Positions 9,347 to 20,912 of a stretch of DNA of 64,000 nucleotides are shown here, piece by piece. The notes beneath the pieces were generated by a model. The model saw nothing but the letters and a program-made list of their open reading frames with translations. It made no database searches and was not told where the DNA came from. The stretch spans positions 224,001 to 288,000 of the forward strand of contig JBBRPR010000001.1 of the NCBI GenBank assembly GCA_038227875.1, given 5' to 3'. The translations under genes were made by a program, and so were the position numbers. Source of the DNA: Planctomycetota bacterium (GTDB lineage: Bacteria; Planctomycetota; SZUA-567; H5-PLA8). Position 1 is the stretch's first letter, and every line of letters begins with the position of its first letter.

Positions 9347-11263
9347 ATGCCTTCTAAATCGACTCCCAAAGAGGGCGCTCCAGCCGAATTGATCGCTCGT
9401 CGAATTGCTGCTCATCAATCTGTCGCCCGCGTGCTCGCCGAAGCCGAGACGCTGCGCGAGGCCACGCCCAAAATTCTCCATGAAATCGCCGAGGCGCTGG
9501 GCTGGGGCCTGGGCATCCTCTGGCGCGTAGACACCGAAGCGCAGGTGATGGTCTGCGAAGAAGTCTGGACTTCCCCGCCGCTGCATTCGGAAAAGTTCAT
9601 CGCCAAGGTTAAGGAGTCACGCCTTCCCCTGGATGCAGGATTGCCGGGCAAGGTCTGGAATTCCGGTCAGCCCGTCTGGGTCGAAGACTATGCCGATCCC
9701 GACCTTCCGCCGACACCGCAAGCCAGGGAAAAGGCCAGAGGCGCGGTGTGCGTGCCCATCAAGGTCAAAGGCAGGGTCTTTGGTGCGATGGAGTTTCTCG
9801 GCCACGATCAGCAGCGGCCGGATGCCTCGATCGAAGAGATGATGGTGATCATCGGCCATCTGGTCGGGCTATTCATGGAACGGCTTTCCACCGCCGATGC
9901 GCTGCGCGAAAGCGAAGAGCGCTACCGCCTGCTCGCTGCCACTTCCGTCGACGTGCTCATAACCATCGACGAGACTCTGAAGATCCTGTTCGTCAACAAA
10001 GCCGCTGAACGCATTTTCGGTTACTTGCCCACGGAAATGATGGGTCTGCCGCTGACGCTGGTGATTCCGGACTTTGCAAACAGCAAGCGTACGTTTGGCC
10101 CATCCGCCCGCTCCGTCCCCTCAACGTATCTGGAAATGTCTGGCCGCCAGAAAAGCGGTGAGAAGGTTGCCCTCGAGGTGGCTTTCACAGAATACCTGGG
10201 CAAGGGCAAGCGCTACGCCACGGGCATTATCCGCGACATCGGCGAACGCAAGCGCGCCGAAGTCGCGTTACGTGTCAGCGAACAGAAACTGCAGAGCGTC
10301 CTGGCCTCATCGGCCGCCGGCCAGATCATCGCCGAGTCGCCGGTGATGATCAGGCTGCTCGAACGCGTCAAAAAGGCCGCCGCCAGCGACACCCCGATTC
10401 TGATTCAAGGCGAAACCGGCAGCGGCAAGGAGTGCATCGCGCTGATGCTGCATCAGCATTCGGTGCGCGCGGGCCGCGCCTTTGTGGCGCGAAATTGCGC
10501 CGCCATCCCGGCCAACCTCTTTGAATCCGAAATGTTCGGCCACAAGAAGGGCGCCTTCACCGGTGCCGAACGGGAACGCAGCGGCGCGTTTGTTGAAGCC
10601 GATCGCGGCACGCTTTTCCTCGACGAGATCGGCGATCTGGACTACAGCCTCCAGACCAAGCTGCTGCGCGCGATCCAGGAAAAGATCATCCATCCCCTCG
10701 GCAGCGATCGCGAAGTCCAGGTCAATCCTCGCATCGTCTGCGCCACGAACAAAGAGCTGCGGGAATGCGTCAAAGAGAAGCTCTTCCGAGAGGACCTCTT
10801 TTACCGTGTAGCCACGGTGGTGCTGCATGTCCCGCCATTGCGCGAGCGCCGTGAAGATATCATGCCGCTGGCGCGTCATTTCGTCGGCCTCGCCAGCAAG
10901 TGGTCGCGTACGCTTTCAGATCGCGCTGAAGATGTCCTGCTGGCCTATTCCTGGCCGGGCAACGTGCGCGAATTGCGCTCGCTGATGGAACAGGCCGTGA
11001 TCTTCGCCATCGGCAGCGAGATCCAGGCCAACGAGCTCACGTTCCCGATGTCGCAGGGCATGGCCGAGTCCACATCGCAATCTCTGGCCGACGTGGAACG
11101 CCGCTACATTCTGAAAGTGATGCAGAGCACCAACCAGAACAAGAGCGACGCCGCAAAGATCCTGAAACTCGCTCGCAGCACGTTGCTGCTGAAGCTCCGC
11201 TCCTTCGAAGAGCAAGCCACCGCATCTGCACCCAGCGAGCCGGACACAAGCACGTCGATGTAG
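9347..11263 (+). CDS. Sigma-54-dependent activator (GAF-PAS-AAA+-Fis HTH)
   Basis: GETGSGKE, GAFTGA, LFLDEIG, WPGNVREL and C-terminal HTH; N-terminal GAF and PAS. Confidence 0.95.
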   Translation: MPSKSTPKEGAPAELIARRIAAHQSVARVLAEAETLREATPKILHEIAEALGWGLGILWRVDTEAQVMVCEEVWTSPPLHSEKFIAKVKESRLPLDAGLPGKVWNSGQPVWVEDYADPDLPPTPQAREKARGAVCVPIKVKGRVFGAMEFLGHDQQRPDASIEEMMVIIGHLVGLFMERLSTADALRESEERYRLLAATSVDVLITIDETLKILFVNKAAERIFGYLPTEMMGLPLTLVIPDFANSKRTFGPSARSVPSTYLEMSGRQKSGEKVALEVAFTEYLGKGKRYATGIIRDIGERKRAEVALRVSEQKLQSVLASSAAGQIIAESPVMIRLLERVKKAAASDTPILIQGETGSGKECIALMLHQHSVRAGRAFVARNCAAIPANLFESEMFGHKKGAFTGAERERSGAFVEADRGTLFLDEIGDLDYSLQTKLLRAIQEKIIHPLGSDREVQVNPRIVCATNKELRECVKEKLFREDLFYRVATVVLHVPPLRERREDIMPLARHFVGLASKWSRTLSDRAEDVLLAYSWPGNVRELRSLMEQAVIFAIGSEIQANELTFPMSQGMAESTSQSLADVERRYILKVMQSTNQNKSDAAKILKLARSTLLLKLRSFEEQATASAPSEPDTSTSM

Positions 11264-17429: not shown

Positions 17430-18170
17430 ATGCTGATCGTCAAACTCTTCCGCCTCTCGCAACGCACCTTTAGATCCCTGACGGGCAAACGTGAGACGGT
17501 TTCCCAAACCGGAGATGCAGCGGATGCGATGGTCTACGCCCGAACGGGCCTGTTCGCCACGCCGGCCGCGGTGGGCTTGCTCACCGGCGTAATTTCAGCG
17601 GCGATTCACCTGCTGCCCTCAGTCGTGTTCAGTTGGAATTATTCCAACATGCCCGTTCCCATCGCATGCTTTGTTTTTATGTCGCTCGGCACGCTCTGTT
17701 CCGGGCCTTTTCTCCTGACGCTCTCGGCTAAGAATTTCTTCAGCCTCGCGCGCTTCACCTTCCTGCTGGCGCTGGTGGGCATGGTGCCGTTGTTCCTGGT
17801 CTTTCAAATGCGCGTGTATGCTCTCTACCGCATTTTCTATTCGATCAACGTCGTCTTTGGCGTCGGGGCGTCCTGGCTGATCGGCCGGCATCTGGCGCGC
17901 AACTATGGCGCGCTGAGATCGCTCACCCGCTGTGGCCTGCTGGGCGTCGTTGGAAATCTTCCCATGATTGGTTTCGAATGTTACCAGGTGTGGAAATGGG
18001 ACGTTCTCGGCCAGCGCGAACAAATGTCGAAAGACATGCTCGCCTTTTTCGTCATGGCGTTCCTGATCTCGCAGATCGGCGTGGCCACATTGCCGGCGCT
18101 CGCATCGGAGCGCGAATTCCGCGAGCGCGTCAACGCCTCGAACGAAACACTCACTGCTGCGCAGCGGTAA
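17430..18170 (+). CDS. Hypothetical polytopic membrane protein
   Basis: About 6 hydrophobic segments; start uncertain; 20-bp convergent overlap with the next gene. Confidence 0.6.
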   Translation: MLIVKLFRLSQRTFRSLTGKRETVSQTGDAADAMVYARTGLFATPAAVGLLTGVISAAIHLLPSVVFSWNYSNMPVPIACFVFMSLGTLCSGPFLLTLSAKNFFSLARFTFLLALVGMVPLFLVFQMRVYALYRIFYSINVVFGVGASWLIGRHLARNYGALRSLTRCGLLGVVGNLPMIGFECYQVWKWDVLGQREQMSKDMLAFFVMAFLISQIGVATLPALASEREFRERVNASNETLTAAQR

Positions 18171-19416
18171 CCCGCACGGCCGCGCCGGGAATTCCGTCCA
18201 GTGCGCGTGCCAGCTCTTCGCGGAGTCGCTTCGAGTCCGCATTCGCCTTGGGAAAAACCACGAGCGTCCGGCGTACCGTGCCGTCCGCTTTCACATCGAG
18301 GTACGGCGCGACATCCGCGCGCAGCGGTCCGTTCAACGCTTCCTTTAAGGTCAGCGGCTGAGCTTCGCGGGTGAGTAGATTGAATTTCTCGAAGCGTTGC
18401 AGGAACGGCTTGAAGAAAACCAATCCCCGCGTCCCGAAGCGCTTCGATGTCGCGGCTTGAAATGCTTTCATCGCCGATTCGAAATCGAAGCCGCGCAGCG
18501 CCTGAAAATTTTCGCGCTGCACCGCGGTGCTGGGAATGACGTTGAGTACCGTCGGCAGCAGCGCTACATCGCCGTGCGCCAGAGTCGGTTGCAATCGCGC
18601 GAAGACCTCCACCGATGCCGCAAACGCACGGTCCTCATCCGGCGCGTCGATGACGACGTGAAGTTCCTCCACCGCAGCCGCCGGCAGCTGCACGCCGTCC
18701 GTGTTCGAACGCACGCGCAGCTTTGCGCGCTGACAGGCCGCGTCGAAGGCGCGCTGGAATTCCGCATCGCCACCAAGCGAGACGGCCTGGCCAAGGATCA
18801 GTATCGTTTTCCCATCAGGCGCGTGAAAATAACCCTCCGTGCTTTCCGTCGTAAACGCGGGCGGCCGGGTCTCCAGTCGCTGCTTCAACAGGCCGCGTGC
18901 CCGTCGGAGCACATCCAGCGGATCGTGCTGCAAGCGCCGGCGTTCAGCGCTGTCGGCGGGCAGCGCGTCGAGCGTATCCGCCAGCTCGTTCATTTTTGTG
19001 TCGAGCGCTTCGGGTGTGAACAGCGTCTTGAGCCACGCTACATCTGCCGGCGTGATCGCGACGTACGGGCGCTGCTCGATCAGTGTCTTCAGCGCGTGCT
19101 CGACATTCTGGCCTGCGCGGCATTCGATGCTCAGCCACGGCATGTTTTCCGGCAGCGCCGCGCGCGCCGTCGGCGACAGCGCGGCCCGATCCTCGTCCAG
19201 CGTGCCCACTTTCGCGAGTTCCGCCGTCAGTTGCGTGGCCAGCATGGTCGCCGTCGCGGGATTATCCGGAGTCAGTTTGATCGTCGCGACAAAAGGTCGG
19301 TAGGTCAGCTCCGCCGCGTTGGCATTCGACGTTGGGACCGTTTCAACGCGCGGATCCGGACAGCTGCAGCAGCCCGCGAGCAGACACGGCAGAATTAAAA
19401 TCAGCGCGCGTTTCAA
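18151..19416 (-). CDS. Lipoprotein resembling fused MMPL/RND extracytoplasmic domains, no TM bundle
   Basis: TTG start MKRALILILPCLLAG-C lipobox; 'DPLDVL...EGYFHAPDGKTILI' and 'VIPSTAVQREN...FKPFL...PL...YL...LVVFP...VRVT'. Confidence 0.6.
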   Translation of the reverse strand: MKRALILILPCLLAGCCSCPDPRVETVPTSNANAAELTYRPFVATIKLTPDNPATATMLATQLTAELAKVGTLDEDRAALSPTARAALPENMPWLSIECRAGQNVEHALKTLIEQRPYVAITPADVAWLKTLFTPEALDTKMNELADTLDALPADSAERRRLQHDPLDVLRRARGLLKQRLETRPPAFTTESTEGYFHAPDGKTILILGQAVSLGGDAEFQRAFDAACQRAKLRVRSNTDGVQLPAAAVEELHVVIDAPDEDRAFAASVEVFARLQPTLAHGDVALLPTVLNVIPSTAVQRENFQALRGFDFESAMKAFQAATSKRFGTRGLVFFKPFLQRFEKFNLLTREAQPLTLKEALNGPLRADVAPYLDVKADGTVRRTLVVFPKANADSKRLREELARALDGIPGAAVRVTAAQQ

Positions 19417-19474
19417 ATTCGATGAGTTGGAAAGTAAGCGAGGAGTGCTGGAGCACACGGCGGGTTGCTCCGCG

Positions 19475-20356
19475 TTACTCCCACAGCGTGGAACTGTGTT
19501 TGAGCTGCTTGCCCAGGTCGAGGATGCGCTGATGTTCCGGTTCCGGCACGCGGAACTTCTCGGGCGCGATGCTGCAGTTAAAATCGATCTCGTCAATCTG
19601 CAGATCCAGCGTGTGCGCGGAATTGTGCGACTGCAGGACGATGCGGCCCGGATACATCAAGCCCAGCGCGTCGGCTTCGGGCTGACTATCGCCGGGCATC
19701 TTGTAATCGGCGTACGCCACCGTGCCGACTTCGCGGCCGAATTTATCGTACACTTCCACCGACTCCACTGTCGCCGATTCCGGCGCGACCGTCAGGCGAC
19801 GTGAACGTTTCCGGATGAAGCCCGGCTTTTCGATGACGCTGATCACTTCGCGGCCGTGTTCGTAGGTCACGCGCCGTTCCAGCGCGTTCTGCGACCACGC
19901 GCGCGGGAAGAACAGATCGCGGCAGGCTCCGACGTGGGCCAGCAACGAGAGCTGGCATTCGGCGGCGTTAAGCAATTCCTGGCGGTCGCCGCGGAAGAAG
20001 CGGCTCTTGCGCGGCAGCCACACGTCCATCTGACCGTTGAAGCAACCCAGGTCGAGAATGGTCTGCCCAGTCGTCGCCTTGATCTGCAGGCGCAGGTTGC
20101 CGTTCTTGTCGCCGAGGTACGTGCCGACGAGCTGGAAATCCTTGTTCTTCTCGCTGTCGTGAAGCGTGACGTTCAAGCTGGCTGCGACGCTGTCGGCGGC
20201 GAGGTGGCGTTCATCGAGCTCTTCGACGACCTTGACCAGCGGGGCGCGCATGTAACAGATGCGGTCGCCGTTGGGGCCGTAGACGGCTTCATTCATGCGG
20301 CAACCGCAAAGCAGCGGCAGCGCGCAAATCAGCGCCAGCAGCGAAACTTTGCACAT
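19475..20356 (-). CDS. Lipoprotein, LolA/LolB/DUF4292-like fold
   Basis: Lipobox 'LPLLCG-C'; 'GNLRLQIKATTGQTILDL...MDVWLPRKSRFFRG', 'VAYADYK...YPGRI...IAPEKFRVP'; start could be 20374 or 20389. Confidence 0.65.
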   Translation of the reverse strand: MCKVSLLALICALPLLCGCRMNEAVYGPNGDRICYMRAPLVKVVEELDERHLAADSVAASLNVTLHDSEKNKDFQLVGTYLGDKNGNLRLQIKATTGQTILDLGCFNGQMDVWLPRKSRFFRGDRQELLNAAECQLSLLAHVGACRDLFFPRAWSQNALERRVTYEHGREVISVIEKPGFIRKRSRRLTVAPESATVESVEVYDKFGREVGTVAYADYKMPGDSQPEADALGLMYPGRIVLQSHNSAHTLDLQIDEIDFNCSIAPEKFRVPEPEHQRILDLGKQLKHSSTLWE

Positions 20357-20912
20357 GTTACCGGTGAATGGCATCAACAACTTCCCCAATTGGAATTCGG
20401 GCCGGAAATGGAGGTCCGATATTCTTTACTGTATCGTATTTCTTGTTCGGAAAACTCTACCGAAATCCAAGCACCGAAACAAGTAGAATCATGTGGCAAA
20501 GGACAGACCGCCGACATTTCCCCTTCTTCACGTAAATACAATGTGCAACACACGAAGCGTTAACTCAGCTCACGTATATCCATGCGTGTGGCTGGTGAAA
20601 GCTCCGGGCTCGCTCGAAAATCCCGACCCCAGATCTTAAACCGGCCCCCATTCTATCTTTAGCACTATGTATCGAACTCTATCTGACACGCAGTTATGGC
20701 ATTAGCTGAACCAAGCGTGGGTTATACGAGCCCGATTCAGGTTATCGGGCTCACCCAAGTTTTCGGTGTCACGAATTCCCTTTACTAACCCTACAGCTCT
20801 CCAAAACTCCTCAACTTTCCGACGACCTCTATAGCAATTGATGCTAGGGTTATCCACCGACAGTGTCCGCTTTAAGCACTTCAAATCCAAACATCCCAGG
20901 AGCGATTTTCGA

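Follow-up and report, generated by a model that had tools for sequence, protein, structure and literature searches.

We describe a gene in a 64,000-nucleotide stretch of a Planctomycetota genome (assembly GCA_038227875.1, contig JBBRPR010000001.1, positions 224,001 to 288,000; the whole stretch is called the window here) that carries the periplasmic headpiece of a pump without its membrane part. Its product P0001, the 421 amino acids (aa) of the open reading frame (ORF) 18151-19416 (-) read from TTG 19416, gives the residue numbers used throughout. This headpiece gene descends from a full-length MMPL gene that follows a LolA/LolB-fold lipoprotein gene across this planctomycete order. All 12 transmembrane (TM) helices are gone. 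A signal peptide stands at the position of TM1, a linker of about 12 residues stands in for TM2-7, and the reading frame closes at the point where TM8 begins in relatives. At least four sequences, which form one clade, have inherited this TM-less form. We believe, with a probability of roughly 0.6, that the protein is a headpiece lipoprotein from an HAE3/HpnN-like MMPL lipid exporter and that it acts, as we infer, as a lipid-anchored lipid relay or adaptor with its LolB-like partner.

Homology of the two halves to pump loops

MMPL/RND transporters have twelve TM helices in two bundles (TM1-6 and TM7-12), which is the region covered by the Pfam MMPL model. The signal peptide is the lone hydrophobic segment of P0001 (residues 1-22; Kyte-Doolittle, 19-residue window, threshold 1.6), so the twelve helices that define the MMPL family PF03176 and the RND superfamily are absent. 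What the protein does have is the two large extracytoplasmic loops of the MMPL/RND type, as seen in BLASTP matches, percent identities and a multiple alignment, A1. The earlier note on this DNA was right that the ORF has a lipobox and no later hydrophobic helix.

Searched alone, P0001 finds no Pfam or NCBIfam match at E <= 10 and none among the PDB sequences. The link to the pumps is made by a full-length paralogue on another contig of the same genome. This 927-aa frame, P0006, has about 12 hydrophobic segments, matches Pfam MMPL at E 3.8e-25 and is matched twice by P0001, the two matches lying about 900 nucleotides (nt) apart. In BLASTP residues 59-241 of P0001 align with 98-285 of P0006 (33% identity, E 2e-25) and residues 251-420 align with 578-755 (29% identity, E 1e-9). 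The matched blocks of P0006 are the loops after TM1 and after TM7, in the correct order. The closest solved relative of P0006 is the hopanoid exporter HpnN (E 9.7e-16). A profile of the full-length relatives also matches HpnN (E 3.4e-38), but through the TM part. The full-length MMPLs of two relatives, G004 and G005, are 39-43% identical to both halves of P0001, which is above the match to P0006. A search of 1.84 billion proteins by their representatives gave 28 hits to P0001, mostly full-length MMPLs. The earlier note saw a resemblance to MMPL ectodomains by eye in the motifs FTPEAL, DPLDVL, GYFHAPDGKTILI, HVVIDAPDE, VIPSTAVQREN, FKPFL, LVVFP and VRVT. All of these are present at 18151-19416 (-), and the E values place the resemblance far above chance. 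Judged by sequence, the halves of P0001 are homologous to periplasmic loops 1 and 2 of MMPL/HpnN-like (HAE3 RND) exporters.

It is the sequence evidence that carries this claim; the structural evidence is consistent with it yet inconclusive. Each periplasmic loop of HpnN consists of a ferredoxin-like subdomain and a helical subdomain. The AlphaFold2 (AF2) model of P0001, built from a 26-row alignment, has a predicted local distance difference test score (pLDDT) of 80.3 and a predicted TM-score (pTM) of 0.74, and it shows two beta-alpha-[helical insert]-beta-beta-alpha units. The earlier note proposed a structural comparison with HpnN, MmpL3 and MMPL-family models. Foldseek with the model against the PDB gave no row at E <= 1e-3, and DNA polymerases together with one MmpL5 chain led a meaningless list. 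The wide VIA-align search reached a best Z of 7.8, with ferredoxin-like folds, MmpL4/5 and MmpL11-D2 among tied rows, none standing out. When 997 chains were re-aligned in a second look, HpnN (5khs_B) did rank first, weakly, at Z 7.8 with a root-mean-square deviation of 2.7 over 91 aligned residues at 23% identity, closely followed by 6wu0 and 5khn. In the ESM Atlas the best score was 0.86, and nothing there led further.

The loss of the membrane part is clean. In alignment A1 the hydrophobic region of the P0001 signal falls on TM1 of the full-length relatives, ectodomain 1 ends in CQRAKLRVR, ectodomain 2 starts at VEELHVVIDAP, and the C-terminal RVTAAQQ before the stop is the exact point where the relatives run on as RVTAARMVGFELK into TM8. 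The excisions are in frame and lie exactly at the domain borders. The proton-relay stretches of TM4 and TM10 (GxxxDYxI and GSxIDYGxY) are all gapped in P0001, in three TM-less homologues (P0003, P0004 and P0005) and in a shorter TM-less protein, P0013. We also ran tblastn with four relatives, three full-length MMPLs (those of G004 and G005 among them) and the TM-eroded form of G017, against the whole window. Only the two ectodomain blocks came back, 19242-18715 and 18675-18154, and no TM remnant was found in the window in any frame. A PF03176 scan of the genome found P0006 and four other genes, with one more on another part of contig C1 just above the cut-off, and the headpiece locus was absent from it. 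The earlier note had proposed both that the protein stops where a TM bundle would begin and that both bundles were cleanly lost, and these results agree.

Inheritance at the gene position of a pump

Of the 20 genomes of the order, 19 (the window's own among them) contain a match to P0001; class-wide the figure is 19 of 62, all within two families. Setting the window's genome aside, order relatives with the whole gene show two match blocks separated by about 900 nt within frames of 920-1000 aa. The gene directly upstream of the headpiece gene encodes a lipoprotein that we call P0002 (the 293-aa form; P0075 is the 299-aa public form of the same product). A P0002 homologue lies directly upstream of the MMPL gene in 13 of the 17 relatives' loci and 1.1 kb away in one more. 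It was not found at 3 of the 17, and one of these contigs ends 1.9 kb upstream. The G004 and G005 partners share 61-62% identity with P0002, and the gene that follows is the full-length MMPL. Since relatives carry a full-length MMPL after the same partner gene, P0001 occupies the pump's gene position. Synteny with G004 and G005 is not conserved past this two-gene module, and the neighbourhood of P0006 holds no P0002-like gene.

The representatives search yielded the TM-less homologues P0003 (97% identical) and P0005 (39-48%), and another protein search yielded P0004 (74%). A Kyte-Doolittle scan finds no further hydrophobic segment in any of the three. P0004 has the same lipobox LLAG/C, that of P0005 is less clear, and the record of P0003 begins past it. 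We built a maximum-likelihood tree from the ectodomain columns of 34 rows with a careful search. It left out the protein fragments P0016-18, P0021-23, P0025-27, P0029 and P0031, as well as P0007 (99.8% identical to the G017 form), the split gene of G007, the rows of G009 and G014, the pieces of G016, and G001 and G002. In this tree P0001, P0003, P0004 and P0005 form one clade (support 100/99), which is nested in a 16-row clade (100/99) of full-length MMPLs from G004, G005, G012, G013, G015, G017 and G018. P0006 pairs with P0019 elsewhere (100/100). Placing P0013 and the four TM-less proteins in one clade is not rejected by the approximately unbiased test (p 0.328), so one origin and two are indistinguishable by it.

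These relatives also answer the possibility, raised in the earlier note, that all close homologues are full-length and that this copy is a private one-strain deletion or an assembly artefact. The assembly is of the metagenome type, with 176 contigs and 88% completeness, and the sequencing run that holds the whole stretch (X1) may itself be the source of the window DNA. Against this, run X2, which belongs to a different study, supplies a contig (record 10) that covers 18559-18907 without a gap and so bridges the linker junction, and P0003, P0004 and P0005 come from other records and share the architecture. An intact frame, a lipobox and domain-exact borders would not come from misassembly. We regard the artefact or private deletion as practically refuted and give it next to no weight.

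Several other states of the gene were seen. P0013 is a TM-less lipoprotein of 310 aa with the lipobox LSA/C, known as a protein record from a contig of 1816 nt. Of ectodomain 1 it has the helical part without the beta part, and its ectodomain 2 is whole. In G017 (contig C198, L041:626-2647 (+)) a 674-aa MMPL adjoins the P0002 homologue. Both ectodomains are kept, TM4, TM7, TM8-9 and TM12 are degenerate, and TM2-3, TM5-6, TM10-11 and both D-Y relay stretches are missing. This form could represent a stage on the way from the pump to a headpiece alone. The G017 genome also has a partnerless full-length copy at L033:2335-5139. In the nearly closed genome of G007 (contig C1, L032:7403-9463 and 9444-10220 (-)) the MMPL that adjoins the P0002 homologue is read in two frames, of 687 aa and 259 aa, which overlap. 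The split lies within ectodomain 1 and is either a frameshift or a two-piece gene. Contig searches, with alignment A2 in metagenome and genome contigs and with P0005 in metagenome contigs, confirmed no relative.

The layout of the module is given in Table 1. The earlier note read the headpiece gene from TTG 19416. We think that GTG 19458, in frame and 14 codons upstream, is the more likely true start, and it gives a 435-aa protein. It is preferred because it aligns with the Met of the TM-less homologue P0004, because GGAG stands 9 nt upstream of it and the upstream gene stops only 16 nt before it, and because public records hold the 435-aa form (P0077). The lipobox is the same with either start. 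Signal peptidase II substrates are marked by the pattern [LVI][ASTVI][GAS]C, preceded by a positively charged n-region and a hydrophobic h-region. The N-terminus of P0001 is LKRALILILPCLLAG/C, with a charged n-region, a hydrophobic h-region and a lipobox read as NLKRALILILPCLLAG/C. The lipid-modified Cys is predicted to be residue 16 (19371-19369 (-)). A C-C-S-C run stands at and just after this residue (residues 16-19, 19371-19360 (-)), and it recurs as CCSC in P0004 and loosely as CCRTKKC in P0013.

Table 1. Coordinates of the headpiece gene, its parts and the adjoining partner gene in the window
Feature	Position	Strand	Evidence
TM-less MMPL/HpnN-like headpiece lipoprotein gene	18151..19458	-	ORF; start evidence; MMPL ectodomain homology
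Signal peptide with lipobox L-L-A-G/C	19369..19458	-	Sequence; sole segment at or above 1.6 (Kyte-Doolittle, 19 residues); alignment A1
Cys-rich low-confidence tether, residues 17-37, CSCPDPRVETVPTSNANAAEL	19306..19368	-	AF2 pLDDT < 50 for residues 1-35
Ectodomain 1, residues 38-236; beta-alpha-[helical insert]-beta-beta-alpha, homologous to the TM1-TM2 loop of full-length MMPLs	18709..19305	-	BLASTP to P0006; tblastn; AF2 secondary structure
Linker of about 12 residues, SNTDGVQLPAAA, replacing TM2-TM7 and flanks	18673..18708	-	Alignment A1; gap between tblastn segments; X2 contig
Ectodomain 2, residues 249-421; homologous to the TM7-TM8 loop	18154..18672	-	BLASTP to P0006; alignment A1
16-nt intergenic spacer with GGAG at 19471-19468	19459..19474	-	Sequence; GGAG 9 nt before GTG
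LolA/LolB-superfamily lipoprotein gene, 299 aa from ATG 20374, lipobox LLCG/C	19475..20374	-	AF2; Foldseek; synteny

The 16-nt gap suggests that the headpiece gene and the upstream gene are co-transcribed. A scan for promoters and terminators counted no more than in shuffled sequence, and none of the sequencing runs listed as holding the stretch is an RNA run. An ORF of 246 aa at 17430-18170 (+), with many hydrophobic stretches and no Pfam hit, runs towards the headpiece gene, and the two share 20 nt at their 3' ends. Since this ORF lies on the opposite strand, it is no leftover of the TM part of the pump.

The upstream gene had been taken to end at 20356; the 299-aa public form makes the boundaries in Table 1 the better reading. 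The earlier note called its product LolA/LolB-like, and the model bears this out. The AF2 model of P0002 (pLDDT 86.2) has 86 Foldseek hits in the PDB at E <= 1e-3, with probability 1.00 and a best E of 2e-11. These hits include LolA3 (9tp6), NE2245 (3buu), LolA and LolB (9tpm, TM-scores 0.59/0.71), and the best TM-score is to the LolB of P. gingivalis. The predicted fold is clearly that of the LolA/LolB superfamily, an open beta-barrel with a helical lid. Family profiles did not reach their cut-offs with P0002: PF14125 (DUF4292) gave E 0.054 and 13.6 bits against a cut-off of 23, and NF053559 (LolB1_Flavo) gave E 0.14 and 11.7 bits against 50. Among its 42 homologues some are named outer membrane lipoprotein-sorting protein by their source, and 3 of the 42 carry a precomputed PF14125 hit. 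A second LolB-like paralogue lies on contig C29 of the window's genome (L045:8402-9442 (+)), 28% identical to P0002 and with no MMPL nearby. Among the genes around it are those for FliD, an HDOD protein and a T2SSE ATPase, and the 419-aa ORF adjoining it has no similarity to P0001.

Proposed role and the case for decay

The role we propose would work as follows. The headpiece protein would be exported, lipid-modified and tethered in the periplasm, where the two fused loops would fold alone into a paired arrangement of ferredoxin-like domains with helical tips. The fused loops may still bind a hydrophobic lipid. The protein cannot pump because it has no proton-driven TM engine, and it would instead work passively, as a relay or docking adaptor, by passing lipid to the co-encoded LolB-like lipoprotein or by taking lipid from it. 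Energised extraction of lipid from the inner membrane would be left to the full-length paralogue P0006. Hopanoids are one candidate cargo because the genome has a squalene-hopene cyclase (contig C4:213123-214085, L046; PF13243, E 1.5e-138), and nothing links that locus to this one. Many weaker prenyltransferase-repeat hits lie elsewhere in the genome. A prediction of the complex of P0001 (36-421) with P0002 (36-293) scored 0.00 twice; it was run without controls and is evidence neither way.

A real rival is that the gene is a decaying relic. On this account P0006 took over, the copy beside the LolB-like gene lost its TM domains, and what is left is a functionless open frame drifting to loss. 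Several observations weigh for this account and against the role that we propose. The ectodomains of the TM-less proteins have diverged at roughly three times the partner's rate, 2.85-2.94 times in 3 of 3 TM-less pairs against 0.44-1.53 in full-length pairs, a comparison which assumes that P0004/P0033 and P0005/P0035 are neighbours, as inferred only from same-sized contigs. We took as near-invariant the 59 positions that are at least 90% conserved across 22 full-length rows. The TM-less proteins keep 40-43 of the 59, a retention of 0.68-0.73 against 0.84-1.00 in the full-length rows (leave-one-out), and so have lost 27-32% of them. Both the faster divergence and the lower retention fit relaxed constraint. 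A strain variant of the headpiece gene in X2 gives a ratio of nonsynonymous to synonymous differences (pN/pS) of 0.42, which comes from 17 listed differences, with some near contig ends absent from the list, and is not significantly below 1 (p = 0.064). The erosion states at the same gene position in G017, G007 and P0013 might reflect a general tendency of the gene to be lost. The TM-less form is also rare. Among the 19 matching genomes of the class the window's is the only one with a fully TM-less frame, and among the 28 representative hits only 3 are TM-less (P0003, P0005 and the 310-aa P0013). The HpnN match at Z 7.8 lies within the range of common ferredoxin-like matches, which is noise. 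Finally, lipid binding, localisation, expression and partner contact of the headpiece protein are all predictions.

Other observations speak against decay. The four TM-less sequences reach down to 39-48% identity, and the frame (393-434 aa) is unbroken in each. It has stayed open over the 1.23 changes per site that separate P0001 from P0005 in the tree. The pN/pS of 0.42, though not significant, leans towards constraint. A lipobox is present in P0001, in P0004 and less clearly in P0005, and it now stands at the position of TM1. The excisions are in frame and domain-exact, and the AF2 fold is confident. The conservation that is retained is patterned, not scattered: the kept near-invariant columns lie mainly in the helical inserts (residues 125-167 and 295-338), which P0013 has as well. 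We judge decay unlikely, although it deserves to be taken seriously.

Another account is that the headpiece is a regulator or scaffold that handles no lipid at all. It would bind the LolB-like partner or the ectodomains of P0006 and could modulate export as, say, a decoy or an assembly factor. The tight coupling to a highly conserved partner gene across a 16-nt gap agrees with this, the partner protein being 82-92% identical across the TM-less lineage. So does the concentration of conservation in the distal helical subdomains, which P0013 also keeps, and so does the fact that HpnN is a dimer. Contact with the partner or the paralogue is only hypothetical, though, and the lipid path of HpnN-type exporters ends in these same conserved helical subdomains. 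Because the path ends there, the helical conservation pattern cannot separate a scaffold from a lipid relay. We think a scaffold improbable and prefer the lipid relay or adaptor.

A bolder version of the relay can be put forward tentatively. A proton-driven RND lipid exporter may have evolved into an energy-independent, lipid-anchored periplasmic lipid-transfer protein, with the LolB-like protein as acceptor and extraction left to the paralogue, and the sister erosion forms of 674 aa and 310 aa would then be repeated moves in the same direction. We find this possible but would not yet defend it.

Significance and known systems

RND/MMPL pumps are usually viewed as indivisible, with a TM proton relay driving the periplasmic porter domains. 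If an inherited protein made only of porter domains is real, the headpiece is an autonomous folding unit that can have a role without energy coupling and can be re-anchored by a lipid tail. It would offer a soluble handle on HpnN-type lipid recognition, and the module would be a way to test how HAE3 exporters hand lipid to LolA/LolB-fold partners. The erosion forms would be a dated series of intermediates in the loss of a membrane part by a transporter. If the lipid-transfer reading is true, this is a new class of bacterial envelope lipid carrier derived from a transporter headpiece. If the gene is a relic, it is a clean case of domain-exact gene erosion of limited wider interest.

The earlier note knew of no description of such a module. 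This holds for the natural form: keyword matching in the open-access literature turned up no account of a naturally occurring RND/MMPL headpiece protein that lacks TM helices. It does not hold for an engineered equivalent. BstA^PD, as described in the excerpted text of PMC10942540, joins residues 54-277 and 510-732 of BstA, an HpnN-like sterol transporter of Methylococcus capsulatus, by a GSGSGSGS linker, and the product is soluble and binds sterols. The likeness to P0001 is one of architecture. Both run loop 1, short linker, loop 2, with the membrane part replaced. BstA^PD is a laboratory construct without a lipid anchor, whereas P0001 comes from a natural gene, has a lipobox and joins its loops by a natural linker of 12 residues, and can be seen as its natural counterpart. 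Since BstA^PD is soluble and sterol-binding according to that text, a fusion of the headpiece type can fold and hold lipid.

HpnN itself (HAE3 RND; PDB 5KHN/5KHS and 6WU0) is the closest solved relative of the full-length family members, and its two-subdomain loop plan appears to recur in the P0001 model. It works by a proton-driven mechanism and has 12 TM helices; P0001 lacks both and is predicted to be lipid-anchored instead. In the part of PMC6394551 that treats it, HpnN functions without co-transcribed periplasmic partners, unlike the headpiece/MMPL family with its paired LolB-like gene. In mycobacteria MmpL7 with LppX resembles the present module in that an MMPL passes lipid to a lipoprotein with a LolA-like cavity (abstracts of PMC11539658 and PMC8427324). 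The mycobacterial MmpL proteins are full-length and belong to another lineage and another envelope.

A parallel in gene arrangement is AmeABCD of Castellaniella defragrans, where the same part of PMC6394551 has the HAE3 RND protein AmeD encoded with AmeB, a LolA-superfamily protein (DUF1329). As in the present module, the gene of an HAE3-type RND protein stands with that of a LolA-superfamily periplasmic protein, and the PDB entries given there for the AmeB superfamily (4Z48, 3BK5 and 3BUU) are among the top Foldseek hits of P0002. The two systems differ in extent. AmeABCD is a four-part system in which an outer-membrane protein and a full-length pump take part, while the present module has two genes and a pump without its membrane part.

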